Origin: Lytechinus pictus
Lineage: Eukaryota
Reading direction: 5' to 3'
DNA length: 60,000 bases
Assembly (NCBI RefSeq): GCF_037042905.1
Contig: NC_087252.1
Span: 4,900,001 to 4,960,000, forward strand
The position numbers were made by a program, and so were the translations under genes. Of the stretch, positions 5,600 to 51,825 are shown in pieces. Below the pieces are notes generated by a model. The model did no database searches and was not told the DNA's origin. It saw nothing but the letters and a program-made list of their open reading frames with translations. The number at the start of each line of letters is the position of its first letter. Position 1 is the first letter of the stretch.

Positions 5600-5727
5600 G
5601 GTCCCGTAACACAAAGGTTAGCGATTAATCGTACGCTTGATTTCATGATTGATTGTACATTGTAGTCAATGGAATCAATCGTAGAAAAATGTTCTACATT
5701 CATTGCTAAGCTTTGAGTTACGGGACC
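5600..5727. mobile_element. Short MITE with CAG target duplication (second copy at 34310-34437)
   Basis: CAG|GGTCCCGTAACACAAAG..CTTTGAGTTACGGGACC|CAG. Confidence 0.8.
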
Positions 5728-10903: not shown

Positions 10904-11403
10904 TCAGACGTGATGGAATGAAGCCATGTGGTGTTCGCACTCCTCCTGGCTGATGAAGAGCCTGTCACAGGGCGCACACTCAAAGTTACCAAGATGACCC
11001 AGGTGCTTGGCTTTCATATGGATCAATAAACTGACCCTTGTCCTGTAACCCATTCCGCAGACCTTACACGCAACGATCTCGTGGAAACGTGTCGATCTCG
11101 ATCCCTGTGCATCCCCATCTTTCTTCCCTTCCCCCTCGGACGACGAGCTGGTGGTGGCTTCTTGCCGCTCTGTGGTGGCTTCCCGACCCCCCGTGGCAGG
11201 ATTTGTGGCTGTATCTTTGGTATTAGAAAGGGTCAGGAGGATGCCGCCCTTGGGACTCTTCTCTCCTCCGTTCTTGGATTTGTTCACACACAGATGGCAT
11301 AGAATCTTGGAGGGGTCGTCTTGGTTACTGGAGCCACTCTCGTCGGTTGGTTCGGTGACGAACTCTGTGCCACAAGAGCTACATTCCTGGATTAGGAAAC
11401 GTC
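10904..11403 (-). CDS. Last coding exon: CxxC..CxxC knuckle and two C2H2 zinc fingers
   Basis: Acceptor tgtgaacag|GAC. Reads [15 protein letters not shown]...ILCHLCVNK...[22 protein letters not shown]...[24 protein letters not shown]. Confidence 0.88.
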
Positions 11404-14400
11404 CTGTTCACATTAAAAAAATATACAAAATTGTATTTAAATTAATGGTGCCATGATCAAACCTTTATAAGAGCTTCAGGTATTCCATTTAGAGAACTGG
11501 GGCCCGTTTCATAAAGGACTTGCAACTATTGTAACTTTGCCATAATGGCAACTACCGTGGTAAAAGGGCTCAGCAGCCAATCAGAATCAAGGTTACCATG
11601 GTAGTTGCCATAATGGCAAAGTTACAACAGTTGCAAGTCCTTTATGAAACGGGCTCCAGATTGACTAAATAAATCATTATTTTACTTGGCTAGACAAAAT
11701 GCTTACACTCATATTCAAATCATTTCTAAGTATTTTACTTTGTTAAGCCGAATTTATGTAAAATGCAGGCAAGACAAAATTGTAAGATCGTAGCCATTAA
11801 ATACATTTTGTTGCATGGCGCAATCAGCGAAGGGACATTATTAATCTTCTATGAAACAGCATCTCAATAGCTTTGTCCCTTTACAATGCCAAACATAAGT
11901 TGTATGAATGCCACAAATGACCCTTCATTCTTTCTTTGTGATGGGCAGATTTCAAAGCAAGATATTATGTAAACATGCCTTACATAGCAGGATAAAGAAA
12001 TTGGATAGACCAGGTGACTAGAATAGGAATAGCACACAATTGAACATTGTATGTAGGTATCTTTTGCATTTCTACTTTGAATGCATAATATAGCATGTTA
12101 TACAATGTACTTTGCAAACTGTGAGATACCAGTCTTCCGTGGACGCCTTGTTGTTTTTTGTGGATGTAAATGAAAAACACAATTCAAAAGAATATAACCG
12201 AGATATCAAAGTTGGTGCCTTTGTCATTAAATTTTAAACCACCATGTCACTTTAGTACAAATGACCTCCTCTGATCATGCGCAGAGTGGAACTACGAACT
12301 GGCTTATTATACACCTACCTCCTGATTCTATCTTCTTTGTTTCAACAGCTACAGAGTCTTTATCACCAGAACCTGGTATATAAAAAGAGAAGGTTCTTCA
12401 TCAGTAACAGGTGTTGTCAATCATCCAAAATGGAATTGAGTTTAATAGCCAATATTATTGCGCTATTGCCTAACATTGTTTAGAATATACCTTCTTTCCA
12501 ACCATTTATGTGTAGTTCTTAAGATGTCATAAAAGCTTCCTAATTTTTACCAAAGAATCTCCTCCTGGTAGCTTAAAAAAGGTTTTAACGAAGGGGGAGT
12601 TGCAAGAAATCATTTGCAAAATTTCTGTTACAATTTTTCAAGCGACATATCAGTTTTAGCTGTTCAAAATTAATTAACATTCCTTGTCGCAAGAAGCAGA
12701 TTAGCAATAAAGTGTACATTTTGAATTGATAACAAGACAATATGATTGATTTTGTGACCCCAAATACACTAGCGATTAACCAAGTTTTTTGCAATGCCCC
12801 ATTAGCTACATTAATCAGAAGGTGAAAACTATATTTTACAAGAGTGTGATAAGCAAGAACAAATTCCGGTACACGAATTATAAAAAGAACATGTTATCTT
12901 GCTGCAGGCTGTAAATTTCTCATAACAGAGATTGCAGACTGTTTGAATACTGAAGATGTAGCACAATAAACTTCAAAGAACTTACCGCTTGACACCACTT
13001 TCACAGATCCCTTCTCCTTGTCTGCAGGCTCCTGGGCTTTAGAGTTCGAACCTTGACTTCTTTTTTCACCAGAACTCATTCTTCTCCTTTTAGGAGTGAT
13101 TTTAGTCCTTACTACCTCGTCCTTGATACTGTCCGCATCCTCATCAAACTCCGCCCCATCCTCAAAGTCCAAATCAATCTTTTTATGTCGCATCCTCCTC
13201 GACCGTCGGCTCTGACTCAACTCATCTTCGCCATCAGAAGACTCGCTATCGGAATCATCATCAATGTCACCATCCTTTGACAGAGCCTCTCTCCATTTGC
13301 TTCTCGCTCGCTCCCGGACCTTGTCTCTGGCATCGTGGCTGTTGTCGTCGCTGTCATCGTGCTCGGACTCTTTACCCCCATCGGATGAGCCGTCAGAGTC
13401 GTCACTGGATTCGTCTGCCTTCCACTCCATCTCTTCTTTGGCATCGTCTGCACTTCCGTCATCACCGTCACCATAGATGGAATACTGGATCGGCCGATGC
13501 TTCCTCTTCCTATTCGCGTAGGGACTGGAGCGGGGTTCTGAAAACAATGCAAAAATGCATAATTATCATTAAAATCATGTTTTAGTTTAGGGATGACGGG
13601 GTTCTTTACAGAAAGAGTCGCAATCAAATGCAACTCCAGAAATCGAATGTAACTTGGTTTTGAGCCAATCATACAGGTGTATTTTGGACTTGCGTTTGAT
13701 TTTTTTCTAGATGAGTTTGAATGCAGCTCTTTCGACCACAGGTCCCTGATGTAATATATTCAAACTCTAATGTGATAAATCAAAATAAAATAATACTTTG
13801 CTTCCATTGCATCAACATCTCTGTAAAAAATGCTAAAGATCTGTATGTATTTAGTGTTAGCATTAGGCAAAGAGTCACAGCAATATAAGTACCATGCATC
13901 AGCACCTAAATCCCATACATTTGCAAGATCTCTGACATGTCAAGATTTAGGTGCGCTTACCCAAGACAATTTCCCTTAACATGACACAGAACCACTCTGA
14001 ACAGTACAAAGCGCACCCATCGCCACCATGTAATACACATAAATCCCATAGGGCTACACGATCTCTCTCATGTGAAGGGTTACTATACATGCTTTGTACA
14101 CCTATCTATATAAGATACAGAGCTACTCTGAACATGACTAATTGCACCAATTGCCATCTTGTAATACACATAAATACCATAGGGCTTCAAGATCTCTGGC
14201 ACATGAAGATGAAGGTGCATTTACCCTGGACATTATACCTACACAAGATACAGAACCACTGTGAACATGGCTAATTGTGCCAATCGCCATTATGTTATAC
14301 ACATAAATCCCATAAGGCTGCAAGATCTCTGGCACATGAAGATTCAGGTACACTCACCTTGGGCACTATCCCTGCACAAGATACAGAGCCACTCTGTATC

Positions 14401-17400
14401 CGGTGCACTCTTGACGTCGACGCAACGGAAATGATACCATTCCACAGAACAGTCTTGACCATCACAAGCTATCATCCGGTCCCAAGAGTTTGGCTGCCCA
14501 CAAGGACACAGACCGGGCTCCTCCAATTGGTCCTTCTTCATCCTCTGTCTCTTTAGTTCTTCTCTCTTCTTCCTTCGCAATCGCAATTCTTTCCTTCTCT
14601 CTTTCTTTAATCTCAGAGCTTCAGCTGCTTCTGTGGGAAGATTTGCAATGATCGACAACTGACAATTTGGGAAGTATTTGAATTTACAAAGATATGTCAA
14701 ATTTATTCATTATTTTTCAAAAATTTCATTCAGGGTCCCATTACATAACATTTAGCAGTTGATTTTGGATCAGGGGGCCGTTTCATAAAGTTGTTCGTAA
14801 GTTAAGAGCGACTTTAAGAACTAGTGGTGGTCCTTTCTTATGTGCTAAACCATCTCCAATGAATATACCATTTACCACAAGGATCACCAGTCGCTCTTCA
14901 CTTACGAACAGCTTTATGAAACACCCACCTGAATTCTATGATTAATTTCATTGATTAATGTGCAGGATCCATTGTTAAAGTCAGCTCTAGATCAGTTTCT
15001 GTCACATGGCCCTTGCTTTAGAGTTTGTGGTTATATATGTTATAGAATGATCTATTATGAAGTTCATTTGCAAGATTAATTATAACATCTCACGTGACAT
15101 TGGAAGGGACAGTGATTATCTGTCATTATAGTTGTTTCTGAAGACATTGAAAATTTGACTTAAAGTGGAAATTGTCAAAGAAAATGTACACAGCAAAACC
15201 ATGAATTCTGTTTTGCAACGGTACACGTAAATTCAATGAACTTTCACATGAAAAGTAAAGAAACAAACACTGTCCCTACATTGGTAGTGTTGCATGCATT
15301 TATCTTCAAACATGAATTTGCAGACCTACTTTTATTCCTCTTAAAATTTTTATACAGGTTTGTAGCTTATATTGCTCGAAATGTCACTGAGGATCTGTAC
15401 CTCCCGACTGGAAGACACCAAGGGAAGCTCAGGTGAATGAGTCTTCAATATTGCAAGGTTATTATAAATATTATTTCAATTGGCATTCTAGTATTCGGCA
15501 AACATATAAAGAACTAGCATTAGGAGAGAGGAGAGTCTCATGGATGCCAGGAAAAGAAAAGATTAACTAAATAACTATAACCCAAACTCAAAGAAAATCA
15601 TGGAGGGAAAAATTGAAGGCAAAAGAGGAAGGGGATGTTAGAGGAAAAGCTGGCTTGGAAATATTGAAGAGATGACAGGCAGAAAGATAAACGAATGCTG
15701 CAAGATAGCACTGGACAGAGACAGATGGAAAACCATGACAAAGCCTCTTTAAAGAGATGGAACAGCGGCAAGGTAAGTAAAGACATCATTTTCCAATCCA
15801 TGTGATTTTACAGAAAGATTCTTACCTTTTGAGCAGAACGGACAAAACCACTCATCCTTTGGCACCTTGGTGACTCCTACACATGTGAAGTGATACCATT
15901 CCACCTCACATTTTGGATTGTCACAGGCAATCATGGCATCATAAGAGTTGGCCCGCCCGCAAGGACACACCCCAAGACGGCTGGACTTGTCCACCACGTT
16001 GAAGAAGCAGCCTTGCTTTGCAGCTGTGATAGGAGACAAGAGAATAAGGATAGCACATTAGGATAGAAACTTGTTATTCTGCTATGACAGTGGTTTCTTT
16101 CTCAAGGGCACATTACGGCTGAATCTCTTATAACCACAAAAATCTGATCAAATAGGGCAAAATTCCGACTAAGAAGATGTATATGATCTGTTTTATATAT
16201 TCTTGTGGGTGTTTCATAAAGCTGTTCGTTAAGTTATGCACAACTTTACACACGACTGGAACATGTTCTTAGGTCATAAATCAATTACATAGGGATATCA
16301 CATAGCACAAAAAAAGGATCACCAGTCATGCATTAAGTCATTCGTATCTTACGAACCGCTTTATGAAACACCCACCCAGTCCAAATAAATGCATACATTT
16401 CTGTGGTTATTTTACTTCAGAAAAGTATCCTATAAATCCTATGTAGGACTACAAATCTTACAGTAGTCCTAAAGTTTAGTTGGCCTTGGGTTTGGATAGC
16501 ATGCGATACCAAATAGTAATTGGCTGAAACTGTTATGCTATCAGCTACTTCCCTTTGGCCCAAATATCATTTTCTCATTGATTGTAAATCACCTGCATTT
16601 GATTTTTGGAGTTGTGTTTGATTGTAAATATTTCTGCAACAGGGTCAAGCCCTGTTTCCCATTAGCCAAATTATTTAGCAATTCTAAATGAATGTCCTAA
16701 CTGACATTGACTTGATATTGATCATACAAGCATCAATGACTGCATATTCTCTCTAGTGACTCTATGTCAAAAGGTCACATCTTCTATTAATTTGTCCTCA
16801 ATTTCTGTACAATGTAATATGGAAACTACATGTACTGTCAAAGATTTTTGCTCCAAGAAGAAAGGGATAATTGAAAGAAACTGAAATTTTCAAGGTATTT
16901 TTCAGTTGATGAAGGTGCACTTTATGGCCAAGTTCACATTTCCACAAGGATATAACTTGGGACCTGAACTATTTTCAACATACAATCATGCATGTAATTG
17001 AATGCAAACTACTCACACCCCTTCTTGGTAATACCATATATTTATTTAATAATGCATTCAATGACACTGCTCTCAAAGTTTGCAGAAAGGTGAAAAACGG
17101 GAAGAATGTAAATTATCCAATTAGAATTCCCCAAAATCTTACCATCATGAAATTAAAGGCAAAACAGAAGAAAGTAATACATTAGCCCTAACTTTTATAT
17201 AGTTTCATGAAAATCAAATCATAACGAGAAAAAAAATGCTTAAAAAATGAATCTCAAGTCTTGAAGAATTAAAGAGATTTAACTAGTAACTGGTGAAAAG
17301 TATGGTGTTAAACAAACCTATAGAAATACTAGCAATTAGCAAACTCGTGAAATGGGGGCAAACATAGAAAGGTACGGACAAGACAAAGTCTGTTGTATTT

Positions 17401-20400
17401 AGAATAGACATATATGTACAAGAAATCAAGAGCCCAACATAAAGTAGACCTGGGTCCTGTTGTATACAATTTATTATTATGGTACCTTTAATATCCAATG
17501 GTGACTTTCATGGCAATGATTCCCAACAGCCAATGAATATGAAGGATTCCATCGAAGTTACCACTGGATTGCAAATTTACCAAAATACTAACTTTTAGAA
17601 ACACAGGATAAGGAGGGGTCCATATCTTAAACACATTTCACAATTTTTTTTATCACATGATTTAGAAAGATGGATTAATGAATGATTGACTATTACATAA
17701 AGTAATAAAAATAAATTAACACAACACAAACAACTGCAAGGCAAAACAGGGCTTAAAAATGATTGCTCGGGTAATTGGTTCTAAAAATGCATTTACTAGT
17801 CAATTTCAAGCAGGCATGGCTATTTGAAGAATGGCTAATACTGCTAACTACATGTCAAATGCTCGTGCACTGCTTTTTAACATTTATTAATTGTGAGGTT
17901 TGCTTTAGAGCAAAAGGTTTATTTCAAAATCTTTCTTTGGGTTGAAATAAAGTCTAAATCAAAGATGGAATTAAATAAAGTGGTTTTAGATTTAAGTGTT
18001 CTCAAATTTTCTTATTCCATACTATAAAAGAATTCTCCAATATAAATCTGATGCAAAAAATACCATATTTCATGAGATTGACTCGATTCTGGTCCCTCCA
18101 AAGTTATTAAAAGAACTGAGGATGGCCACATCGTCATCACAGAAACTACAATATATCCAGAGACTTTATTACAGGGATGAAATATGTGAACGGGTTTGTT
18201 TGTAACCCACCTGAGGAAGATTTCCTACGGGCCTGAACGGAACGCTTTTCTTGGCTCCCTTCTGTGAATAATATAATTGAAGGCTTGCATCAGTATTCAA
18301 GTAATTCTTTTAAATTACTTTTTAATCACAAAATTTGCTCTTTGGTTTTTGACTAAGTTTGTACAAAAAGCAACTTTCAAAGAGAAATATTAATGTTTTG
18401 ATGGAAAACTGGAATTTTAAAGAAATTTAGTTTAACTGAGTAGGTAATTCAAATTACTTCTTTCACCTTCTGGATCATATCATACACATGCAGTGCAATG
18501 TATAGTGAAGGAAGAGGAAGAAAAGTGTGAAAGCAAAGGGGCATAGCAGGTACGAGGAATAAAGAGGGTAAGGGGGGACCGAAAGCTCAACAAAATGAAA
18601 AATTAAGAAAAAAAGAAAAGGATATGGGAGAGAAAATGGAAACAGAAGATAGATGAACAAGATATGACATGTTGAGAAGACAATATCAGAGGACAGATTG
18701 GCCCAAAGCAAAGATACATCCCCCCCCCAAAAAAAAGAGAATATAGGGGAGTATTAAAAAACAGACTTTTTTTTTAAAGAGGGGTTAATAATTCTTGCCC
18801 AAATAGATCCACCTAGTGTAACTGGTACTGAATCATGCACAAGACTAAATTCTGGCAGCTAAAAAAAAAAAACTCCTTTGTTTGTATTTCTAATTGTTTA
18901 CCTTTATTTCACTACATGGGAGAGGAGTTGAGGGGGGGGGGGTGATAATTGGCACTTTAATATGATACTTTAAGAGTTGGAAATGACAGATTGGAAGGTA
19001 CTAATATATTGCAAGATATTTTAGTTTCCTTAAAAATATAGATTCTAGCTTTACTTGGCATACATGAAACCGGGGCTCCCCCAAATAAGTTAATGCCACT
19101 TCAACACTAAAAAATATATATGTAAAACATAATATAGCAAAGGGAGTGGTAGATATGAAAGGAGGAGGAAAGAAGGGGTGTATAAAATGTTGTGTTGGAA
19201 AAGAGAAAAAAAATAAGAACAAGTGGAATGCCTCTGGCCGTCTCACCTGCATCACGCGATTCAATATAGCAGCAGTGCTGATTTTGAAAACTACTATAAC
19301 TCGCACAAGATGTTCAGTGATACTTGGTTACTCTTATTTCCACGTTTTATGAACTAGACCAATACACTTATAGAGATATGATGGCAATTCAACAAATACC
19401 CCCAACGTGGCCAAAGTTCTTTGACCTTACATGACCTTTGACCTTGATCATGTGACCTGAAACTCGCACAGGATGTTCAGTGATACTTGATTACTATTAT
19501 GTCCAAGTTTTATGTACTAGACCAACACACTTTCAAATTTATGGCTGTAATTCAACAAATACCCCAATTTGGCCAAAGTTCATTGACCCTAAATGACCTT
19601 TGACCTTGATCATGTGACCTGAAACTTGCACAGGATGTTCAGTAATACTTGATTACTATTATGTCCAAGTTTCATGAATCAGATCCATAAACTTTCAAAG
19701 TTATGATGGTAATTCAACAGATACCCCCAATTCGGCCAAAGTTCATTGACCCTAAATGACCTTTGACCTTGGTCATGTGATGTGAAACTCAAGCAGGATG
19801 TTCAGTGATACTTGATTAACCTTATGTATAAGTTTCATGAACTAGGTCCATATATTTTCTAAGTTATGATGACATTTCAAAAACTTAACCTTAGGTTAAG
19901 ATTTTGATGTTGATTCCCCCAACATGGTCTAAGTTCATTGACCCTAAATGACCTTTGACCTTGGTCATGTGACATGAAACTCAGGCAGGATGTTCAGTAA
20001 TACTTGATTAACCTTATGGCCAAGTTTCATGAACTAGGTCCATATACTTTCTAAGTTATGCTGTCATTTCAAAAACTTAACCTCAGGTTAAGATTTGGTG
20101 TTGACGCCGCCGCCGCCGTCGCCGTCGGAAAAGCGGCGCCTATAGTCTCACTCTGCTATGCAGGTGAGACAAAAACAGAATGGTGAAAGTTTGAAAAAAA
20201 AATAAGACAAGGAATGGCTGCTTTAAAATTGAGATCCTTAAGACTATGTAGATTTCAAGTTGGCAACTGGGTAAGTAAATTATGACAAGGGGCTAGGACA
20301 ACTTTTCCATAGGGCTTGTACTTAATTGTCGGGAATTTGTGGTGTTTCTACGTACCTATTCCCCTTGGGTAGTACCGCCTAATCAAAATATATAGCATTA

Positions 20401-23400
20401 TTTTTTAATGTCCTCATGAAGTTCCCCTTGAGCAGTAGGGCCTAACCAAAATATAACCAAGATAGCATTTTTTTTAATGTCCTCATGAAAGAATAATATA
20501 ATTTGAAGAAAACATTTTTTTTTAAATGACACTCTAGCCATTTTATATATTGGAGCAAGTGGAAGAGTAGTCCTTGCCTTACAAATGTGGCAAATTTGAA
20601 GTTTCCATGGGGATAGTGATTACTGATTTGTACATATTTCAAAATTTAATAACTTTCTTTGTTTTTTGTCCAATATTATTCAAACTTTCCCTTATCAAAT
20701 TGTCTGAACTTTATTTTTCCTCTAAAAACAATTTTTTATTTGGGTTAGATTTCCCTAAAAATGAGGAAGTAGAACAAGAAGGAGGGGGAAGATGAAGAAG
20801 AGTTTGGAGGAAGAGGAAGGGGGGTGGGGAGAAGATAGGAGGAAGGGTGTGAGAAAGGGGGTAGGCACTAAACATGGAAAGAAAGCCCCCTATAAAAATC
20901 ATATTAAAAAAAAAGTGATAGGAAAAGGTGCAATAAACACACCAAATAGGATTTCAGATATAACACTGAAAGTACTATGAGGTGAGACCAAGTGATGTGC
21001 ATTACAAAACTTTCTCAAAACAATATTTGAATTCTATAGTTCTATAAGTCTACCTACAGCTTTGGTAATAAAAGTCTAGCATTCCAATCTTGAAAAAGTG
21101 CCGTGACTGAAATATTTTTCTCATTTATTGATGCTTTGTGAAACTTTGAATATTATAATTTGAAAACATTCATTGGCCACTCTTGGTAATGCTTTTATGT
21201 TTCAATCAAAAAGGCACTTTGAACATTTGTCTTACAAAGTTAGAAAGATTATATCCTGATTTTTTTCAGCCCATTTAATGCTGCTTGAGTAATGGTTTAT
21301 ACCAAAAAGAAAAGCAAAAGGCAATGAATTCACTGTGGTCAGGAGCCCCACCAAAATAAATTATCATGAAAAATAGCTTTAAAAACCCACTAAAACTAAT
21401 TTTACCTGACATCATCCACAACACTACATTACATGACATACACATTAATATTATAAACAAGAATAGTGTCCACATCTGTGGGTAATTTAATAAAACTTCA
21501 AGAAAAGAGGCTCTAAACTATATTCCATTGGGTTTATATAGGTAACGCGGTTGGACGGGTTGAACCAAAAACATGTCCATGGGAAGTCCCTAAATGAAGG
21601 AATAGACAGGCTAAAAGATTTTAATGAGAACTGCACACAAGAATTGTAAGTTAAGGAGCACTGCAATAAAAACCAGTCAATCCCACATTAGGTGCTCTGT
21701 GATAGACAGCAAGACTTGAGGGTTGCTTAGTCTTGATAAACATACCTTTTGTTGAAATGATTGAACATATATTTTGAATTTCTGTGTAATTACTACTACA
21801 TTCATCTGATCTTTACCCAAATTAGTATAAATACTTTATAATTTTTTTTGTTCCTACTGGCAGCACACTTCTTAAAATGAAAATTTAAAGAGTAATAAAT
21901 AATTCATCATCATATCTATGTAAATTGAGTTTATAATGAAAGACTACATATACACATTATAAAAGTGATACATTTTGGGCAAGAAACCCAGAACAATTTG
22001 AGAAGGAGCTGATTTTATTTTAGGTGGATGTGGTGGATTACTTTGATTTGGTTTCATAAAACAAGAAATGTGAATATTTGAAAGAAAAAAAATAAATTGA
22101 AAATGAGAAAATATGTTTGATAAATGTACTGCTGCTGCAGTCTGCATATATTGTAATATACATACCCCCACCACCTAAAAAAATAAATGTGTCGCCATGT
22201 ACAGATTTCATCTCTCAACGTCTTTTCTATTTGTGATAGTGGTAGAAAATTGAAGTAATTACCAGCACGGTAGAGTTCTTCATTGGTTTTGTTGACTCGC
22301 ACAACGGCATCAATCTTCTCACATTTGATTTTGAGTAAGGTGGAGCAGGGACTCGACGGGGCCTTCCGTTTCAGGGAAGACAACACTACAGGAGAGGACA
22401 AAAGGATAGAGGATAATAAATAGCACAGGTAAAGTTCAGTGTTAAAGGAAGATTGGCATCGACTTTCATTGCTGACCCCAGACTCTATAAAAGGCATTGG
22501 AAATACCTGTAGCATAGAAAACTTCTGGGGGAAGCAAACTGGCTGTGCCAGTGTGCAATTCTATGGCCAAGCCTGCTTATGCTCTGGCAACTGCCAATCC
22601 AGAAAAAAGCGAGATCATGACTTTACCATAAGGCATTTTCCAGTAGCATATTACGTCTGCTGGTCTTAAATCTTGTTCTACTCTGGGTAGTATACATCTA
22701 CATCCAAACGTTGTCTAATTCCTACGAAAACACATAATTATTTTCCTTTAATTTCAGGAATTTCGCATTCCTAATTTTTCCACCAAGGTTTGAAAGATCA
22801 TAATAAAATCCAGTTGTGGAATATGAACACAATAATTGTCAATTATGGCCTTTGATCTTGGTGGAGTTGTCTTGTTTTTAATTGCAACTCTTCGTTACTG
22901 GATCCCAATCATAGCAAAGATGATTACAAAACCTAGACTCTTACCTTCTTTTGTATCCTCTTTTAATTCTAATTTTGATTCAGTGACTTCTACTTGAGAG
23001 TCTGTCTCATCCTGGGATGGCTTGAGAATCTCAACAACTTCTATTTCCTCGTCCACTTCTTCCACTCTGACAGATTCAACTGTAGCCGATGAAACAGAGG
23101 AGTTCTTGGTACATTCTGAGGATTCCTCAGCAGATGTAATTGTCCTGGTGAGGTCTTTGGGTGAAGTTGTCTCTGAGGAAGTCTTTGAGGGTGTGTATCC
23201 GTGAGGTTCTTCCGGTTTTGGAAGAACTTTTACGACTTCCTCAATAGGGTCTTTCAGTTTTTGAACTGGCTTTTCCAGCTTCTGAGGGGGCTGTTCCGTT
23301 TTCTTGGGAAGCTCTACCAGTTTTTGGAGGGGTGGTACTGTTTTCTTTAAAGGTTGTTCTTGCTTTCCAGGGGCAACATTCCTATCAATCGGCGGGGTGA

Positions 23401-26400
23401 GAACTTGGGATGGCTTCACGAGCTGGATAGTTGGTGATGAGAATGTACTTACACTGACACCTTGTGGATTTGATGGCTTGGCAGACATTGGGTTGACAAA
23501 CACTTGCACATGTGGCATCGGAAGCTTTTGAGGAAGTCCCTTCGGGACAACTCGGGACATGGTTTGTTGCACCATAACTGGTTCATTTGGTGGGGTAGGG
23601 GGCAAAATGGTGATGAGGTTCGGATGGGTAGGGGTAACCCTGCCATCCTGAGGGGTGTTCAGAAGTTGTAAGGCATTCGGCGAACCGTTGCTCTGTTGAC
23701 TGTGAGCACCTTTGTTTGCTGCGGGACTGTGAACTCCTGTTTGTACGGTCACCACAGGTGTCTTAGAGCCCACTGTCCCTGAAGCAGAACAGCCACTCAC
23801 CACAACATTGGATATGAGCTTCCGTTCCTTGATAGCACCCGGCTTCTTCAGAGAAGATACGGCTAAAGTGATGAGAGGCGAGCTCCGCCCCTCTTTACGC
23901 TTTTCCTTTTTGTCCTCAGAGTTACTATGTGGGGCCACAGGTGTGTTCTTGCCTCTTTGCTCTGTGAGCACTGATGCTTTCTTATCGCTCTTCCGGTTAT
24001 GGGACACCTTGACAGTCTTCGTCGATCTCTTCTCCTTTTTGAGTGGTATGGTTGATTCGGGAGATGGAACAAAGCTGATTTCTAAAAGAGAAAAAGAATA
24101 AATATGGTTCATTTATTGGTATCAGATTCACAAAATGACAGTTTCTCAGCCCTAAATCAATGTTATATTTGTAATAAAGATAATAATCTGCTTTAATATA
24201 TGCGCTTAATACATCGGAACGACGTGTCTAAGCCCTTTACAGATATATTATTACCCCGGTCATCGGATTCAATCAGTCATTCCTGCACACAATGTGTGCA
24301 CATCCTCCACTCCCTGGGGAGTATTCCAGTCAGTCGCCGATGAGGCGCCCACAGTACCGGACAAGGTACAACGACTTTCACATCCTAACAGGTACCCATT
24401 TAGCACCTGGATCGAGAGTGGCAAACTGTGGATTAACGCCTTGCCAAAAGATGCGATACCGTGGTGGGATTCGAACACACAACCCTCTGTTTACAAGGCG
24501 AGAGTCAGAACCACTACACCACGGCTCCTCCACATGTATCTCATTGGAGTCACTGGATTCATTGGATATTGCATACATGTGTAACCAGCTCAAACTGAAC
24601 TGTTTGATAATGCACACAATTTCAAATCACCAAAGTGTTTGTCCCTGTTCTCATTACAATCCTAAAAACTAGTTTACTGGAACTGGTTCAGGAAAACAGT
24701 TTGGAAGATTGCTTTACTAGCGTTCCCGTTTGATCACCTGAAAGTGGTGTTCAAAACCACTTCATGGAAAGCGGTCTTGTTGTGATGGGAACGCTCTCAG
24801 TGGGGTGACATGTTTTGTGCAAAATTTGAAACTGCAGCATAGATATTCTACACACAGTGTGTGGAGTAACACACTCAAAATGTGCGACGATCGTTTCCAC
24901 AAGAACCGTTGTGTCCTCACGCTAAAACCAGTTTAACGAGGCAGAGCGATCTTGAAAACTACATTGCGAGGTAGTTTTCCGAACCGGTTTAGAAGATCGC
25001 TTCCAAGACCGCTTTGAGCGTTCTCATTACATTTTTAACTAGTTTCCAGTAAAGTTCGACATTAAATGAAATAGATGTCACATTCCAAGATGGCTGCTCG
25101 CATGGAAAAAGTTGATTTAAAGTGACAATTTTGGACTATATTTCTTTATTTTTGAAAAATATATATCTTCATCAAAAGTCACAAATTAGGGAAACATTGA
25201 CAGGTAATCAAATTTATCCGTATTTTCAGGAAAGGATGTACATCGACGATCTAAAGAACACACCATATCACTTTTATTTGTTCTCACATACTCACATTGA
25301 TGTTAGATCTAGACTTGAAAACGCGAATCTTCCGTCTTTTTGGACAGAAATATTACATACATGTAGTTTCACTTCATTTTCCATTCAAATTAAGAATATT
25401 CGTGAAATATACATTTTCTTAATTCATTTTAAGGCAGTATGATATGGATAAGGGGAATTTTTTGGTCAGTTTTATTGTATTTATGGTCACTTTTTCTCAA
25501 ACAGTGTAAACATTTACCAAAATTTGTAAACGTTTTTTTGTGTTAGCAGGCGTTTTAAAGGCAGTTATACGTTTTGACTCTGGCCTTACTAGATTACCTG
25601 GTAAATCATCGTCATCGTCGTCATCTTGTATCTTTTCTTCTCGAAGAATAACGTCCTTGAAGGCAAAGCTGAAATGTTCATCTGGAGAAGAATGAAACAA
25701 AGCCACATCACTCATCAAAATACACTAGGTGGTTGTAAGTTCACATTTATATGTAGAGTCATCTAACTTCATTTCAAATTTGGTGCTGTACTGATATTAA
25801 AATCGGCCCAACATCAAAAGATCAACATCAAACTTGAAATTGTACACTAGATGCAAACTCATAACATGCATACCACATTTTGAAATAATTAATTCTTATA
25901 CTACCATAACATTTAATAATCAAATAAAATATGAAAAAATAAATTACAACAAGGTGAGAAATTAGTAAATTAAAGAAAACAAAAGCAGTGCAGTAATACC
26001 AAATAAGAGAGAAAAAATAAATAGATAGAAATTCACGAAGGAGATTTTTTTTTATAGCATGCAGTATAAAAAACAACACCTCTTTTTATGAATGACACCA
26101 ATAATTCTGGTATTCAAACTTCACAAACAATGACAAACTTGATGAATTCAAAGCAAAGTAAAAGACAAAAATGTCTATAAGAATTTAAACTGAACAAAAA
26201 GAAGATATTAGAAATGTTCAGTCATAACAGTTGAGAGTTTCTTTTTAAGACATTTTAAGCATATTTCCTTATTAATAAATGGAATGCTACCAAGGGTTCC
26301 AATAAAAATGGATGTTTCAAAATTACAATCAAGTGCAGGCCTTTGTGATAGGGGTCCACAAGAAACTCCGAACTACTATGAGTTATTAAAGAAAAACATG

Positions 26401-29400
26401 AAGGATTAAAAGAATCACATACGTGGAAAACAATTATATGTCACGTCTTGACCCAACTTGACAGAAACTTCAGGCCAGGAATGGCGAATTCTTTTCCTCG
26501 CTCTCACTGCAGTCCCATCTATGCAAAAATGTGTAAGTGAAAGAGATGAATAAACAAAAAAACGTCACACAGAAGATATAAATTATGTGAAGATGAGTTA
26601 GATTTGGAACCCCAACAAAAGTCCTAGCCATTAGTTTGCGCAGCATCTTCCCACAGGAATCAGCCTTGATGACTCTCCAATCAAAGCTTTGGGAGATGGG
26701 AGAACAGGGGGCTGTTTCACAAAGAGTTAAGTATGACTTTTTAATAGAGTCACACTTAAATTTCCAGCTGCTTGCGGTATAAAAGACATTACCGCACTGG
26801 TCAAATCATACCAACAGGACCCACACTACTGCGTATTAATCAGTGAGAATGCGCATTTGTACACGCCAGCACTAAAGCATGACTATACAAGTAAATCACA
26901 CTTTTTTTAAACACCCCCCTCCCCCCGTAACCATGTATGCAGGGAAGCCGATGGGCAAGACTTTTGGTAGGATGCTATTATGAGTGTTATAATGTATACT
27001 ATAGTACTGTACTTTAAAGGTACACGTCACACGTTTTGATCATGTATTAATGTTGATACAACTCTTTACCATTTTGAGTCATTGCACTATTTCAGTGTCC
27101 TCATATCAACAAAAAGGCATGATCAAATATCACACATAATGATGATAAAGGTACCAATCTACATGTACTGTTACTAGAATCACCAAATAAAATATTATAC
27201 ATGAGTTGACACGCAAACATTACTACTGTGTATTTACAGAATATGAAAAAGAGTTCTCATGAAAAATAAAAGTATCAGTACTAAAATAATAGAGAAGGGA
27301 TAATGAGTCTTAAAATCATAAAATATTCTTTAATACCACATAAAGAAATAAAAATAAATGAACTGTACATATCACCAATAAACAAAAATAGGCCTTACCT
27401 GATAACATACTTATCATAGTCACAACTCAAACATTCTTTTTCTTATTATCAGTATAGATACTGTACATGCATAAGCCACTTTCAAATAAAAAAATCTTTC
27501 TTTTTTATTTTTTATTAGTAAACTACATTTTAAAAGGGAAATCCTATACTGGAGTATAGATACATGTAGCTTTCATAACAAGGGCAGGAATATAAACATT
27601 AAGAAACTTTTGCTCTATTTAATCAATCAAAGAATTGCATTGCCTGACATCAAATGTGAGCGGCTCCTGTTCATGCAGCGTATAATTGTGAATTTTCTGA
27701 GAAAATAGGCATAATATTTCTGGAAGCTCACATTTAACAAATAAATAAAATGTTCAAAGTCATCCAATGTGATGCTTGGATGGATTTTCATCAATCATTC
27801 AATTATGGTCGTTTCATTTTTCAGCTTTTATAAATGAATAAAAAAGAGGGAACTTGACTTCATGAAGGTTTCATAATTCAAATATTTTCTGAACGATCTT
27901 CCTCTTTCACCATCAGGAAATATTTTGTTTTTCCTACTAATATGTTTTGTTAATATGCAAGTTCAGGAGGTACATGTATCATAATTCATCTATGGTGTAT
28001 CTTGTGAGCAATATTCCCACCATTGAAAAAATGACCCCCCCCCCCAAAAAAAAAAGGAACAAAGACATACAGTGAGTTACACAAGATTTTATATTCTTTC
28101 CACTGTATTTTTAGAGACAATAGCACAAAAGAGGGTAATGTTACTTTTCTTTCCTTTCCTAGAACTTGAATATCGCTTTAAAGTTCTTGTCTGGTTTGAT
28201 TTTGCATAGAATTCTTAAATTACTAGCAACACCTTGATGAAACTGATCATCTATGGTGTCCTTACAGATGAAAAAGACAAACAAACCTGCTGGGCTTGCA
28301 CATGAATTATCCTCTGCACTGCTCGCTTGACTTGATTGCTCGACTGAATTGAAAACAAAAATTAACAAAGAAAATGGATTTAAACCAAAGCCAGGGCACA
28401 TGAATCTGATGTAATGATGATGATGATGGTGATGATGATAATGATGATGATAATGATGATGCCCATAATAATCATGATGGTGGTGAAAGTTATGGAAATT
28501 ATGACAAAATTGATGAGTATGATAGTAATCATGATAAATAATTGATATGATGATGATGAAAATAATGATGGTAATGATGATGATGATGATAATGATGCTA
28601 ATGATGATAGTGATGATGATGACGATAATGATTATAATGATAATGATGAATGATGATAGTGATGATGACAGTAGTGATAATGATGATGATGCTAATGATA
28701 GTGATGATGATGATGATGATGATAATGATTATAATGATAATAATGATGAATGATGATAGTGATGATGACAATAGTGATGGTGATGATGATAACAGTGTTG
28801 ATGATAATGATCGGGGATGATAACAGAGATGATGATGATGATACTTGCATCACATTCCCCCTACAATAAAGCAGCATTCCAATATCAAACATGAAATGCA
28901 TGTATTTGTATTAAAATGTAAATGCACAATATCACAGTAGGTCATTCATGACACAAAATGCAAACAGAACAAGTCGAACAATATACAAGCATGGACTTGG
29001 GAAATGCCATTCCAAATGAATGCACAAGATTCAACTGTGCTATAGTATATTACAATTTCTAAAAATATCAACAAGTTTATTAAAATCTAGAGTTACAAGT
29101 AGGTCTTCAAGTACACAATCATGAAAATTCATGCTGATATCATATGACACAAATGAAAAATATACATGCAGCTCTTCATGAAGTTCTACTTGGAATAAAC
29201 ATGTAGGCCTACAGTAATGGCGATATTGTCTCTTTTTTCACAAGGGGAATTTACACGGAGTATTAAAAGGGAACACATTTTTTTTTCAGGTAAGAGAATA
29301 TAATGGACATTGATATTAGTAAAGCAAGGGGAATAACAATTGGCTATAATAAATGTAATATATTATAAGTACTGATAAATGAAATGGAAGCAGGTCAACA

Positions 29401-32400
29401 ATAGACATTTTTTTAAAATACTCAGTCCTATAAGTACATGTACATGTAACTTTGTATTTTGTAACTCAATAACATTTCCATATTAAACCTACCTATTATA
29501 GGCTGCATAATCAAAGAAGTGAAAGAACTGTTATAGAAATAAATGAATCCCATTTCAGGGCACTGTAACTTATTATGGCAGACACAACTGGGAGGTTCCA
29601 CAGAAGAACATAAAAACCAGGAAAAAGGCTTTTGTTGGTAGGTCATATCTGGGGCCTCGTTTCATAAAGGAATATTACAACTGTAGTAATTTGACCATTG
29701 TGGCAACTGGCAACTTCCATGGTAACAAGGTTCAACAGCCAATCACAATAAAGTTTTCCATGGAAATTGTCATAATGGTTACTGTAGTATTTGCAACTCT
29801 TTATGAACAGGTCCCAGGTCATGTGTCTATGCATTTGAAGCTGTCATGTTAATAGAAATAACCATAAAACTGCAACTGAAGTATTGGGTGGCATACATTT
29901 TGACTGCTGTGAGAAGATTTTGGCCAGCACAAATTTTTACCTTAGGCTTTACTGGGAATATGGTATACCGTACTATAAAGAATAGTTTGTAACACGTTGG
30001 CCTATATGTATGTATACATGAGATCACCACACACCATCTGGCATAAAATGCATTACTTCAACACCAAAGTGGAGCTATAATCTATTCTGAATATAAATTG
30101 TTCACTGTATCACACTGTCACACAAATCAATGAATGGGACCCTGGCGACAATGAGCACACTGGATGATTCATGTACCGTAGCCCACACTGTAGTATGCAC
30201 TGACTACATGTACATGTCATACATGTACTATACAGGCCTTAACTTTTGATATTTTTATAGGGCAAGGTACTTTTCTACTCATGCATTCACAATTTCACAT
30301 GAACTTTACAGGCAGCAGAAAGAATACCATGAAAGGCAAAAAAGGGCAAATAAGGGTAACCTCCCCCCCCAAAAAAAAAAAGAAACATCCAAGGGGATGT
30401 ACTTGGTGGATGAATTCATTCCCTGGCATTTCGTTTCATTCTCATGATCTATAAAAAAATGCTTTACTATTGTATGTATATTTGCATACACATACTGTAG
30501 TCTACACATGTACTTGTCATTATTAAAGCCTGTAAATATGCCATGTTTCTTTTATAAAGAATACTCTGAGAGGACAAGACATATACATGTATATTTAAAG
30601 ATTGATGAAAGCATTCCAGTACTACTCTTCCTGGCCTAATAGAGTTCAAACATAAACTTTCTGCATCTTTAACAGGGAAATTAGGCCCCCCCGGGGGGGG
30701 GGGGCATTCAGTATATAATGCATAGTGGGTATGTGCCGCGGAGGGGACCCCCATTTTTACACTCAGATATCCGTTCCAGGGCATAGCATTTTCATCTTAT
30801 TAAGAAAAAGAACTAAGAAAGCCGTTCCGGTCGCATTGATCCGCCACAATGAGCTGCAATTTGGTGAAAAGCGGCCGCTGAGCGCTGTCCAACCATCGTC
30901 TCTGCGCGAGCGCACCCCGCGCCCGGGCCTCTGGACTAGCTGCATACACGTATGCCCGTTCCATAGTGATGCACACGCAAGTGACCCGTTCCAAGGACCC
31001 CCGTTTTCACAAGCATTTGTAGTTCCGAAGCCCGTTCCGAGGACCCTCCTTTGTACAATAAGTCCGCTCCAAGGCCCCCGGTTTTTGTCTCGCCCGCGGC
31101 ACACACCTACCAATTTTTTGGTCGAGTGCCCCCCCCCCCCCCGGGATTAGGCCTAAATGTTGGTACACTGCACCATTTATTCTAAAATGTGAACTATACA
31201 GTGACAAACTGATTATACACATTTACCATAGTGACATAGACACCGTTCTGTGACTACCTTCCTATAACTAGTATACATGTAGTGGAAACTAGGGATAGTG
31301 GAAATTAGTTTTAGCGTGTAGTGAGAACGGTTGAAGCGATCTTCCAAACCGGTTCAGAAAACCACCTCGTGATGTAGTTTTCAAGATCTCTTTGCCTCAT
31401 TAAATTGGTTTTAGCGTGAGGAGTCTGAGGACACAACCATTCTTCGGGAAGCGATCTTGCACATTTTGAGCGCACTTCTCCACAAAGCGCTCTTCCATAC
31501 TAGTTTCCTGACTCGTAATAAGAACGGTGTCTAATGCAGGGAAATGTGGCCTTTAGACAGGCAGCCATATAAATGATCTTCTGCACATGATTTACCTTCA
31601 TGGAAATCAGTTTTAATGGTCAATTTTAGGTAGGAGGCTGCTACATGTACAGTCTCTTTTACAAAAGAGATGACCACCGGCACAGGTCTGACCTGTACAT
31701 GTATGTGATGTCCAATGGGAACAGATGGACCACTTTCACTTTTTTTCTTTAAAATCAAATGACCTTCCCAACATTTGTTTACAGACAGTCTTAGCTCAGT
31801 TAGCTGGTATTTTATACCTTTCCCCCTCCCATTCAAGGAAAAGTGGGGCTAAGCAATAGCCAATCACAGAAGTCGAAATTGCACGTTAATCACGCTCTGT
31901 ATGGTAAAATCATCAATATTCATTAGCTGTGGGATCGTCCGGGGTTAAGACGTTAACCCCGGCTATAAAGCAGATAGTATGGGGTTAAGAAAGACAGAGT
32001 GAATACAAAAAAAGAAAGTATGGGGTTAACGATAGTCCTAGGTTAAGGATAGTATGGGGTTAAGGAAATGCAATGTGAAAAGCATATTAGTGTACAGAGT
32101 TTCCCCAAACAAATTAACTCCAGATTAGTCTGCTGGCACAGACCCTGATTGAAACTTTGATCAACAAGTGTGTCTCCATGCAAAGACTAGCACATACAAA
32201 ACTTGCTGTTTCAAATGAGGAGCGAGAGGGCCGTCAGTACACAAGGCATGAGTAGGCTGCAATTCAGACCCTTTACTCGAGTGAAGGGTTTGCACAGCAG
32301 ACTATGTCCAGATCTAGAATATATTCACACCTGCCCCATGACGAAAAGTTCTAATAGAATATTCTCCAATCAGAAAGTAACATATAGTCCAATTATCCCT

Positions 32401-35049
32401 CCAACAAGATGGTCAGCTGACAAAAAAATGGAGAATGATCAAGTACAAATTTACAGGGAAGATCACCCTGAAATAAGGGAATTTAATACAACCATACAAA
32501 TTGAAGAAAATAAAGGTTAAGGATTGATGAAAATCTGTCAGAATAACAGAGCTATGATTTTTTTTAAGTTCTGAATTTATGATTTCAGAAACGAGAAATT
32601 TCTCCATGTCATGTGATATAATCTTTTTAAAATACATTTCATTTCTAATAAGAAAATGGAAAGTGATTTTATTTGTGAAGTGGATTCAGACACATCATGT
32701 CATACAAACTTCTAATAAAAAATATTTGCATTCATCATATTGCATAAAAAAAAAAATCATTGAATTTACATTACTGGGAGGTGTGTGTATTTGAGTTTTG
32801 TCAGACGTGTATCAATCAGATATGATTATTTACGTCTGGGACCGACCTTTAACGTCACCATCCGAAAGACGTGACCCGGGGCTCGAACCTCGAACCTCTG
32901 CATCAATTTGTAACTTCCCCACAGCTTGGATTACAGGCGCACGCCACAACGCCCAGTTCTGTATGGTATGTGAGGCTTCTCACATACCATACATGTACAT
33001 GTATGACGTCACAAACTAAACAGTTTAAACATTCATAACTCTTGCTGGATGTCAATCAAGCCACCAATATCGTTTGTTTTGATTTTATTATTAAAAACCA
33101 ACTCATCTGTCAGGGAGAACTGCACCTTTAATGAGGATCAGCGTTTCCATCACATGCATGCACAAAATATGGCACATGCATAAGGTGCCATTTACAGTCA
33201 TATTTTTTAGATGTATTTCAAGGTTCTTTCTACATGTATGAGCTCAGCATCCATACTGGTCCATTCTTGTCACAAAAACAATGTAAGCAGCTTCATCTTG
33301 GGTCAAAACACTGTACAATGTAAGTGCTACTCTAAGTTGTGCTTCAAAGTTTGTGAACCCCACCACAAAATGCACTCCTTCATGGTGAGTGTAAAACGTG
33401 ATTGGCAACCCCAGAGAAACAAACTTTAATAAAGGAAACATTTTATCACCTGACTTCCAATTAAATACCTGAAACAAAACAGAACTTGAAAACGTTCATT
33501 TTCTGATGGGGTTCACTAATCAATGAGCACCGTCCAGTAGGTAATATGCACATGCTTAACAATATTATTATACAGTGCGTCCCAGAAAAAACGAAACCGA
33601 GATTTAGCGATAATTTATCATAACTTAATCACAAATACAATAGACAAATGACCTACCATTGTAAAGCTTAGAATCTCCTCTTCCATCTGAAATTACTTAG
33701 ATTATTTCTCATTCACACATGAGTGAGCAAAAACAATTTGAAGAGGGGATGTTTATTTAATGAAATTATGGAAATACAAGCATTGTTTCGAGGGAACGTA
33801 ACTTTTTTACGTCTTGACCATTTTTTGTGATTAAGGTATCGAATTAAAGAGCAGATATTGAACTTTTTAGGCATGTGATTTTTCTTTTTAAAATTCAGAT
33901 ACCCCCCGCCAAATGAGTTTTTGGTATCCTTTCTTCAAATTGTTTTTGCTCACTCATGCTTGAATGAGGAATAATCTAAGTAATATCAGATGAAAGAGGA
34001 GATTCTAAGCTTTACATTGGTAGGTCATTTGTCTATTGTATTTGTAATTAAGTTATGATAAATCATCGCTAAATCTCGGTTTCGTTTTTTCTGGGACGCA
34101 CTGTAGGTACATTAACAATATAAATAACATGATTCATTAGGCAAGGTTGCAGCACAGACAAGCTTAGTATCAGGGATCACAATGGAGCAGCGTTGTTTTT
34201 TTGGGGGGGGGGGTTTACAACCAAACTTACCATCATTTGTGTCTACCTGTTCAGCATGCTTCTCACAAATGTCTGATATGAATAAAAAGTGTCGAGTATG
34301 ACTGATTAGGGTCCCGTAACACAAAGGTTAGCATCGATCGTACGCTTGATTTTCACGATTGGTTGTACATTGTAGTAAATGGAATCAATCATAGAAAAAT
34401 GTTCTACGATCATTGCTAATTTTTGTGTTACGGGGCCCAGATCGTCATACTGTATAAAACCGGATTTATAATTTGTCTTTCACAAAATAGGGAGTAAGAC
34501 TGTACATCTTACCATTGAAAACCATCTGTAGTTTGCAGTTTGTGATAGATGCAGGTTAAAAATAATTGTGAAGATAGCTCCCAATGCAAATATTACATTA
34601 AACCTGTACAGTGTAAAATTAGCAATTCATATATTTAAAAAGTTTACGTGAAAGCAAGTGAAACACTGAAAATAATACTTGGTTGAGCCCAATAGATGTG
34701 CACAGCTACATGCAGGTATTTCCAGAATTCCAGTGCTTTTCAAAAAGTCAGCAGATTATCACCATCCCATCCCCAATTGAGAGCCACTAAACAAAATCTA
34801 AACAACCAGAATACTTGGCTGAGGATCGCCAGTCCAAGCAACAATAATGTCAAAAAAATGCAATTGAAATAGCAGTCCATTCGTTGGATTAAACTTGTTA
34901 CTGCAAGAATTTGGAAGCAAAGCATTTGTGAATCTGAATTTATAAGTCTTACCTAGAAGATCCCCCCAGTCGGTGAGGTCGAGAAGGCTTTCACAGATAA
35001 CAGGACGGACATCAGGGCTAGCACCTTCTGATGCCGAGGATGATTCCAT
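10904..35049 (-). CDS. Multi-exon gene, ~1055 aa: double ING-type PHD finger + C2H2 zinc-finger nuclear protein (11 coding exons)
   Basis: Exons 34953-35049, 28287-28343, 26423-26518, 25598-25681, 22945-24081, 22263-22385, 18211-18261, 15826-16023, 14358-14630, 12986-13537 and 10904-11403 all have GT/AG sites. They join in frame (3168 nt) from an ATG preceded by an in-frame TGA to a TGA stop. Additional small exons could have been missed. Confidence 0.8.
11500..11656. mobile_element. Near-perfect palindromic MITE with central CCAAT (relatives about 1405-1545, 1722-1882, 5400-5525, 8593-8715, 17452-17605, 29652-29815)
   Basis: CTG|GGGCCCGTTTCATAAAGGACTTGCAAC..GTTGCAAGTCCTTTATGAAACGGGCTC|CAG, spacer AGCCAATCAGAATCAAG. 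Confidence 0.85.
12986..13537 (-). CDS. Coding exon: acidic/basic low-complexity region with NLS-like motifs
   Basis: 552 nt, tgttttcag|AA..AGCG|gtaagt. D/E/S-rich with RKRKHR and PKRRR motifs; phase 1-1. Confidence 0.88.
13905..14396. repeat. Degenerate ~132-bp tandem repeat (~3.7 copies) overlapping the PHD2 exon donor
   Basis: GATCTCT anchors at 13927, 14060, 14191 and 14324; each unit has an AAGATACAGA.CCACTCTG-like segment. Confidence 0.8.
14358..14630 (-). CDS. Coding exon: basic coiled segment + PHD finger 2
   Basis: 273 nt, cccacag|..AAG|gtgagt. [45 protein letters not shown] is a C4HC3 finger. Confidence 0.92.
15826..16023 (-). CDS. Coding exon: PHD finger 1 (ING-like)
   Basis: 198 nt, tatcacag|..AAG|gtaaga. 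Encodes [45 protein letters not shown]. Confidence 0.92.
18211..18261 (-). CDS. Small coding exon ([17 protein letters not shown])
   Basis: 51 nt, ttcacag|..CAG|gtgggt; phase 1-1 and open; locally GC-richer than its flanks. Confidence 0.65.
19218..20175. mobile_element. Helentron-associated (HINE-like) non-autonomous element with internal ~162-bp tandem repeats
   Basis: AACAAG end; subterminal IRs GTCTCACCTGCAT (19240) / ATGCAGGTGAGAC (20158); adjacent short IR and (GCC)n; repeats containing TGACCTTTGACCTTG. Confidence 0.75.
22263..22385 (-). CDS. Coding exon ([41 protein letters not shown])
   Basis: 123 nt, ctctcctgtag|..CTG|gtaatt; phase 1-1. Confidence 0.75.
22945..24081 (-). CDS. Large coding exon, P/S/T/K/E-rich and probably disordered
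   Basis: 1137 nt within the 405-aa ORF; ctcttttag|AA..AAG|gtaaga; phase 1-1. Confidence 0.9.
24178..24528 (-). mobile_element. Full-length tRNA-derived SINE with central domain and CR1/L2-type tail
   Basis: A box TGGTGTAGTGG, B box GTTCGAATCC, core CACTCTCGATCCAGGTGCTAAATGGGTACC, tail TAAGCGCATATATTAAAGCAGATTATTAT. Confidence 0.85.
24644..25053. mobile_element. Palindromic non-autonomous DNA element (related partial copy at about 31270-31530)
   Basis: AACTAGTTTACTGGAAC / TTGGAAGATTGCTT / AAGATCGCTTCCAA motifs; reverse-complement match to the 31.3-31.5 kb region. Confidence 0.55.
25598..25681 (-). CDS. Coding exon ([28 protein letters not shown])
   Basis: 84 nt, cttctccag|..CAG|gtaatc; phase 1-1. 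Confidence 0.75.
26423..26518 (-). CDS. Coding exon ([32 protein letters not shown])
   Basis: 96 nt, tttttgcatag|..CAC|gtatgt; phase 1-1 and open. Confidence 0.75.
28287..28343 (-). CDS. Small coding exon ([19 protein letters not shown])
   Basis: 57 nt, ttttcaattcag|..CAG|gtttgt; phase 1-1. Confidence 0.7.
28411..28841. repeat. (GAT/AAT)n microsatellite tract
   Basis: Long imperfect trinucleotide array. Confidence 0.95.
30688..31145. mobile_element. Non-autonomous DNA element with CCCGGG(G)n termini and 8-bp TSD
   Basis: ATTAGGCC at 30680-30687 and 31146-31153; ends CCCGGGGGGG..GCA / TGCCCCCC..CCGGG; GC-rich interior. Confidence 0.8.
32781..32957 (-). mobile_element. Short SINE-like element with 7SL/Alu-like 5' end
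   Basis: Minus strand ACTGGGCGTTGTGGCGTGCGCCTGTAATCCAAGCT.., then GGTTCGAGCCC, CGGATGGTGACGTTAAAGGTCGGTCCC and an (AC)n tail. Confidence 0.7.
33573..34103. mobile_element. Tc1/mariner-type MITE
   Basis: TA|CAGTGCGTCCCAGAAAAAACGAAACCGAG..CTCGGTTTCGTTTTTTCTGGGACGCACTG|TA; long (>150 bp) TIRs. Confidence 0.92.
34953..35049 (-). CDS. First coding exon ([32 protein letters not shown]); the exon itself begins at 35078
   Basis: Acceptor ttccattccag|35078, in-frame TGA upstream of the ATG at 35049, donor TAG|gtaaga (phase 1). Confidence 0.75.
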
Positions 35050-41274: not shown

Positions 41275-41437
41275 TCTGACGGTAAGGGCGCCAGATATTC
41301 TTTCGTCTCGAAGTATCACGACATCATAACTTTATTGACAGTCAAATTCCAAGAATTATGAGTCATGATGTGTCATGGTCGCGGGATGGCTAAAATAGCC
41401 TTTGAAAGGTGATCGACGACCGAAAGTGGTATGTTAA

Positions 41438-51664: not shown

Positions 51665-51825
51665 GAATATACGTTGAAGGGACTACACACACTCAAAATG
51701 CAAAAGAACTCAAACCTATCACCGTTAGGCTAACGGAGCGCCTGGCCCCTTGTTTAGAGTAAGAATTATCGGACTGTTGGTAGGATCACCTTAGGGCCTT
51801 AGGTTCAGACCACAAGCTGCCACCA

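Follow-up and report, generated by a model that had tools for sequence, protein, structure and literature searches.

The stretch of Lytechinus pictus DNA analyzed here, hereafter the window (60,000 nucleotides (nt) of contig NC_087252.1, positions 4,900,001 to 4,960,000 of the forward strand), harbors a 177-bp short interspersed element (SINE) at positions 32781..32957 of its minus strand. The element sits in an intron of a gene encoding a PHD-finger protein (10907..35049, minus strand), between the coding exons 35049-34954 and 28344-28288, and is in sense orientation relative to this intron. From its 5' end, it comprises a 7SL-like head (element nt 1-45; 32913..32957) that corresponds solely to the 5' Alu domain, with an A box for RNA polymerase III (pol III) of apparent 7SL origin at 32944..32953; a linker (32890..32912); a tRNA-type pol III B box (32879..32889); a short central core (32839..32875) similar to the 5' portion of the Deu/Nin (Inv) domain; a 3' stem-loop (32802..32838) that is a putative recognition site for a reverse transcriptase from a long interspersed element (LINE); and an A-rich end with an (AC)4 tail (32781..32801). 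All of these parts lie on the minus strand, as does a T11 run in the flank (32746..32756), which is located 25 nt beyond the tail and may serve as a pol III terminator, being the first run of at least four T after base 45. The coordinates, strand and parts agree with an earlier reading of the sequence alone, the original prediction, which had described a 7SL/Alu-headed chimeric SINE at this site.

When both window strands were scanned against 4,227 Rfam families, 10 matches with E ≤ 1 resulted, among which Metazoa_SRP (RF00017) aligned to 32865-32957 on the minus strand (31.1 bits, E 2.6e-4; gathering score 70). The alignment to this signal recognition particle (SRP) RNA is confident over approximately the first 45 bases only, and its remainder is of low confidence. 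A count by eye found 35 of the first 45 RF00017 consensus positions identical, in addition to one inserted base. Compared to the hagfish SINE1-1_EBu as printed, the head has the same first base and 28 of the first 30 bases identical, and its A box shares, by eye, 8 of 10 bases with each of the 7SL A boxes, human and hagfish, that PMC7245038 prints. The predicted resemblance to the 5' end of 7SL RNA and Alu is thus borne out, at a score below gathering. Inspection by eye of the SRP alignment revealed that the closing helix has all three of its pairs, two of which are changed on both sides relative to the Rfam consensus. The other two helices of the head, which we take to be helices 3 and 4, have six of eight pairs (one of the misses is common to the consensus) and three of three pairs, respectively. 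The U-turn triad G4/U23/G24 and both loop triplets are also present by eye, the features that PMC12265939 describes as needed for SRP9/14 binding and for the pseudoknot. Overall, the head displays the features of an SA46-type 5' Alu domain, namely three helices, the triad and complementary loop triplets, with one extra mismatch in helix 3. Beyond it, nt 46-110 contain no significant fold (z -0.65 and -1.33) that would substitute for the 3' Alu helix.

No tRNA was found among the 10 Rfam matches, and ARAGORN reported 0 genes in the window. As Rfam gives Metazoa_SRP and neither Rfam nor ARAGORN gives a tRNA, SRP is the sole structured-RNA reading of the head. Altogether, these comparisons support a derivation of element nt 1-45 from the 5' Alu domain of 7SL RNA.

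The body of the element has close relatives elsewhere. A search with the 19-base core motif yielded four loci on metagenome contigs (L001-L004), among which the identity of the motif is by selection, and 0 and 0 loci in viral and prokaryote genome collections. All four core-bearing loci have the B box, core, 3' stem-loop and tail in common with the window copy; over the 105 aligned bases from the B box to the tail, 96 are identical in L002, 92 in L004, 89 in L003 and 86 in L001 (82-91%). The B box (32889-32879) aligns with the boxes of these loci and carries a perfect 7-bp tandem duplication, the first copy of which lies in the linker, in line with the duplicated 7-mer noted earlier in front of the box. 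By contrast with the body, the heads of L001-L004 gave 0 Rfam hits to SRP, and BLASTN of nt 1-45 against them returned no match. The heads of L002-L004 carry A- and B-box-like motifs, and from these motifs only they are presumed to be tRNA-derived.

The linker ties the window copy to two of these heads. It is identical to the L004 head at 21 of 28 positions (0 of 1,000 shuffles as good) and to the L003 head at 20 of 27 (2 of 1,000), whereas the comparisons with L001 and L002 are not significant (558 and 275 of 1,000 shuffles as good, respectively). The similarity to L004 begins at 32912, the base directly after the 7SL closing helix, that is, element base 46, and the L003 match starts at this base as well. 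Since the linker matches L003/L004 from base 46, about 56 nt of the donor head appear to have been exchanged for 45 nt of 7SL without a spacer; the distance between the A box and the start of the B box is 64 nt in the element and 69 nt in L004. These alignments show a join at nt 45/46, where the 5' Alu domain closes, and a donor lineage represented by L002-L004, from whose own head come the linker, as its 3' half, and the B box. The earlier proposal of a 7SL head swapped onto a resident SINE body therefore stands, given the junction at base 46 and the linker match to L003/L004.

L003 is found past the stop codon of a gene for carboxypeptidase B, whose product is 92% identical to that of Strongylocentrotus purpuratus and 89% to that of L. 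pictus. Because L003 sits behind this sea-urchin-like gene, the donor type occurs in a sea urchin. This locus lies in the 3' untranslated region and has a 20-bp tandem duplication in its core, and L002 seems to be inserted in another repeat. The core, stem-loop and tail shared by the four loci occur with at least three different heads (L002; L003/L004; L001), and this SINE body seems prone to head exchange. The window also contains, at ~1910-2100 (plus strand), a degraded, SINE-like sequence carrying a B box as well as a Deu-like motif. As body donor it was rejected (439 of 1,000 shuffles as good). The likeness of the central motif to this SINE near 2017-2041, claimed previously, is visible by eye but does not stand out statistically, for scores as high were reached by 169 of 2,000 shuffled sequences and by 22 of 278 other pieces of the window; BLASTN with word size 7 gave no link between the two elements.

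The core is nearly invariant across L001-L004, partly by selection, as the scan pattern lies there. Its ~37 bp resemble the 5' part of the Deu/Nin domain, as judged by eye, and are likewise similar by eye to the post-Meta segment of BivaMD-SINE1, which is named Deu/Nin in PMC4824008, and to segments of Pan_1, Tgr_1 and HaSE1/3. We regard it as Deu/Nin/Inv-like; a Meta-domain or V-domain core was dropped, since the BivaMeta and BivaV alignments show other sequences. Deu/Nin/Inv SINEs such as BivaMD-SINE1 and SINE2-3_SP share the core motif but are reported with Deu/Nin segments of 62-330 bp, compared to ~37 bp in the element, and the published descriptions give 70-120 bp for the Deu/Nin domain of invertebrate DeuSINE/Nin/Inv SINEs.

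The 3' stem-loop has a predicted stability of -13 kcal/mol (z -3.07), equalled in 2 of 200 shuffles. Across the five sequences, 93.8% of 65 cells are paired, and the structure withstands a 9-base loop insertion in L004. The (AC)n tail named in the original prediction is present but has four units only; L002 ends in a longer AC run, and L003/L004 end in AACC repeats. No target-site duplication (TSD) is evident in L002 and L004, and L003 is uninformative, as it sits in a CT microsatellite. In the window copy, too, no TSD stands out, as stated earlier: among 300 random pairs of flanks, 228 and 117, respectively, did as well as its longest flank repeats (5 exact bases; 8 with one mismatch). Positions 32960-32993 form an inverted repeat whose 15-bp arms match perfectly around a 4-base loop; it ends 2 bp before the first base of the element and could be a fold-back from the insertion or an unrelated small hairpin.

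The copy number was approached through sequencing runs, using 29 words sampled over 32700-33050 and the share of these words, without their positions, in each of the 24 runs listed. Fourteen of the 24, from one organism and six studies, hold 0.41-0.45 of the words, and none reaches half; six others, labelled as metagenomes, hold 0.10-0.14 and were not used as evidence, and four hold none. The expected share is 0.46 for the whole element and 0.25 for the body alone (P of at least 13 words, 0.014). In one word-holding run the contigs add up to just 1 million letters, as would be expected of a high-copy repeat. We infer that the element is a member of an independently born 7SL-headed SINE family.

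Taken together, the head, junction and body make it probable that the element belongs, as a single copy, to a SINE family of sea urchins that arose through a head swap and combines a hybrid promoter, SRP9/14 binding and copying by a LINE. We propose that, in the head of a resident echinoid SINE, approximately the initial 56 nt gave way to the first 45 nt of 7SL RNA, a complete 5' Alu domain, probably via template switching during reverse transcription or via recombination. The resulting promoter would pair the 7SL A box with the donor B box at an Alu-like spacing, from which pol III would transcribe the element. The 5' domain of the transcript might then fold as in 7SL, bind SRP9/14 and carry the RNA to ribosomes, where a resident LINE might recognize the 3' stem-loop and AC tail and copy the element into new sites without a clear TSD. 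The SRP9/14 step is proposed because a 46-nt domain suffices in PMC12199147: it is reported there to bind SRP9/14 like the 86-nt domain and to retain ~86% of Alu activity in HeLa cells.

Several findings weigh against this proposal. The Rfam score of the head is less than half of the gathering score, and no 3' Alu part is recognizable in the SRP alignment. The origin of the head was judged against the Rfam model and the hagfish SINE1 only. On the donor side, neither ARAGORN (0 of 4) nor Rfam (0 of 4) called a tRNA in L001-L004, no donor copy from Lytechinus was found, and 0 of 13 pairs of the 3' hairpin show a two-sided change. As to mobility, BLASTN, nhmmer and a profile built from the four relatives detected no second copy in the window, the metagenome scan for head plus core returned 0 loci, the element has no TSD beyond chance, and the run shares are also compatible with the expectation from the flanks only (0.355, P 0.20). 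Moreover, an A/B hybrid promoter alone could account for the junction without SRP9/14.

This last point underlies an alternative in which the 7SL-headed family is real, but its 7SL piece acts solely as a novel A box and 5' terminus, SRP9/14 having no role because the LINE reads the 3' stem-loop directly. Non-mammalian LINEs are described as recognizing 3' structures (PMC7245038), the donor-type SINEs spread on the same body without a 7SL part, and 5S-for-tRNA head swaps on Deu-type bodies are documented without a link to SRP (PMC4758252, PMC3272025). Yet an A box needs only ~15 nt, whereas the join coincides with the closing pair of a 45-nt domain, and the U-turn triad and both loop triplets have been kept. 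A single junction event could nevertheless fall there, given that reverse transcriptase pauses at the fold. We consider a promoter-only role, the chief mechanistic alternative, unlikely, though it deserves serious attention.

Somewhat more improbable is that the family is real but already catalogued in Repbase, Dfam, SINEBase or a RepeatModeler library, perhaps as SINE2 or 'SINE/Alu'. Several S. purpuratus SINE2 families are catalogued, of which few sequences were compared here, and the donor may be among them. The printed heads of SINE2-1_SP and SINE2-2_SP, however, differ from the head of the element, and the urchin SINEs listed in PMC3747384 are termed tRNA-derived. PMC13023118 (2026, by the SINEBase authors) confines its list of 7SL SINEs to supraprimates, hagfish and shrew moles, and a literature text search found the four body motifs in no paper.

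A one-off chimeric retrocopy, in which reverse transcription of a donor SINE switched once to 7SL RNA and the product never multiplied, would suit the single copy seen directly (in the window, with 0 metagenome loci for head plus core), and chimeric small-RNA retrocopies are known (PMC7245038). Against it, the word shares of the runs are better explained by the whole element than by the body on its own, and we regard such an event as quite improbable. Human Alu contamination or an assembly chimera has very little to recommend it beyond the Alu-like first 30-45 bases of the head: the element lies inside an intron of a sea-urchin gene, its head is joined gaplessly to a marine SINE linker, the closing helix bears two-sided changes, the start is like hagfish SINE1, and neither further Alu sequence nor a poly(A) follows. 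A degenerate tRNA head resembling 7SL by chance, which would explain the Rfam score below gathering and the tRNA-type B box, is hardly credible in view of the 28 of 30 bases identical from base 1 to a 7SL-derived sequence, the kept Alu fold, the missing tRNA call and the failure of BLASTN to match nt 1-45 to the heads of L001-L004.

We then compared the element, read as a head-swapped SINE, with known systems. The 7SL-derived SINEs described in PMC13023118 and PMC7245038 have three origins, all in vertebrates, and none of them has lost either end of the Alu domain. The earlier list of such SINEs, mainly from Euarchontoglires and hagfish, misses Urop of shrew moles (PMC13023118). Apart from subscription journals, Repbase and Dfam, which lay beyond the search, the literature yielded no 7SL SINE from an echinoderm.

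The closest counterpart is SINE1-1_EBu of Eptatretus burgeri (Kojima 2020, PMC7245038), which is described, like the element, as a 7SL 5' end fused to pieces of a pre-existing SINE with a tRNA head; both are independent of Alu and have a partner other than L1 (presumed for the element) and a microsatellite tail. They differ greatly in composition. SINE1-1_EBu is reported to have a 140-nt head with both 5' (96 nt) and 3' Alu-domain parts, a 7SL B box, an RTE-derived bipartite tail and TSDs of ~17 bp, whereas the element has 45 nt of 7SL, a donor B box, a Deu/Nin-like core, a stem-loop tail and no TSD, and resides in an invertebrate. Alu, FLAM and B1 (supraprimate SINE1) and the shrew-mole Urop (PMC13023118) share with the element the start at 7SL base 1, the A box, the U-turn triad, the two-hairpin 5' domain and a similar A-to-B spacing; unlike the element, as described, they are centrally deleted 7SL with both ends kept, a 7SL B box, a poly(A) and L1 as partner. 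The minimal Alu domain engineered as SA46/AY46 (Moldovan, Yin and Moran 2025, PMC12199147) resembles the element in having a 45-46-nt 5' domain and no 3' domain, but SA46 is a construct with an external promoter that depends on L1 ORF2p. Its authors argue that, lacking a B box, the 46-nt fragment could have had no evolutionary success; in the element, the donor SINE supplies such a box.

Hybrid heads and exchanged heads have possible precedents. The left unit of the tree-shrew Tu types II/III is said in the Background of PMC13023118 to be tRNA-derived or of dual 7SL/tRNA nature, which may be a precedent for a hybrid head; these Tu SINEs, unlike the element, are described as dimeric or trimeric, of supraprimate ancestry, and as also containing full 7SL-derived units. 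In the 5S-headed Deu-type chimeras (HaSE3; the 5S subgroup of DeuSINEs), the head has likewise been replaced on a Deu/Nin-type body, but the new head is reported to be 5S rRNA instead of 7SL.

Classification reflects this mixed composition. As in SINE1, the 5' end of the element comes from the 7SL 5' end, according to the Rfam model and the hagfish SINE1. In place of both Alu-domain parts joined by a central deletion, however, nt 46 onward matches donor heads, and the B box aligns with those of L001-L004 instead of being, like the A box, of 7SL origin. SINEBase (PMC3531059) requires of a SINE that a stretch of 60 nt or more be at least 60% identical to tRNA, 5S or 7SL and that the genome contain at least 100 interspersed copies; the 7SL match of the element covers only 35 of 45 positions. 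Nor is it a SINE2 with a tRNA-derived head, as there is no tRNA call and the donor accounts for no more than the 3' half of the head. The element would thus work like a SINE1 but lacks three formal features: the 3' Alu part, the 7SL B box and a 7SL overlap of at least 60 nt.

We tentatively suggest, as a possibility that still leaves considerable room for doubt, a successful invertebrate SINE family with a bare 45-nt 5' Alu domain, a natural counterpart of the SA46 construct; it would be the first 7SL-headed SINE outside vertebrates and the first without a 3' Alu part. The element pairs the active 5' fragment of PMC12199147 with a borrowed B box. If it belongs to a large young family, it separates the protein-binding and promoter jobs of the Alu domain, and head-swapped relatives on one body would offer a direct test of the long-standing question whether SRP9/14 binding explains Alu-type success. 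If the proposal is true, it would be evidence that ribosome targeting by SRP9/14 is a portable module, one that promotes jumping even when the partner is not L1 and recognizes a stem-loop. Lytechinus is an established laboratory model genus.

The host gene, delineated by tblastn of the proteins P0001-P0003 on the window, encodes an uncharacterized protein of ~1,070 residues, in which two PHD-like fingers are accompanied by a C2H2-like region at the C terminus; its match to PF00628 is weak and below the cut-off. The exon product of 22898-24049 is 99% identical to a protein of L. pictus, 94% to one of L. variegatus and 59% to one of S. purpuratus (3 hits among 5,618 candidates), and it was by mapping these proteins onto the window that the element was placed in its intron. 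This identity assigns the host to Lytechinus, consistent with the predicted invertebrate-type genome, and the protein is conserved in Lytechinus and Strongylocentrotus. The intron that contains the SINE also contains a MITE-like (miniature inverted-repeat transposable element) fold-back element at 33571-34105, with 180-bp arms of 94% identity. Palindromic MITE-like repeats, some of them in two copies, are found at 9367-9837, 2237-2483, 5598-5735, 34308-34445, 11487-11670 and 41434-42043, and the Rfam miRNA matches at 9568 and 34309, both below gathering, lie on inverted repeats. Self-BLAST revealed tandem repeat arrays at 19298-20104, 53750-54810 and 58719-60000. A 539-codon open frame at 50063-51682 (minus strand), with no Pfam match at E ≤ 0.01, is possibly a decayed retroelement gene.

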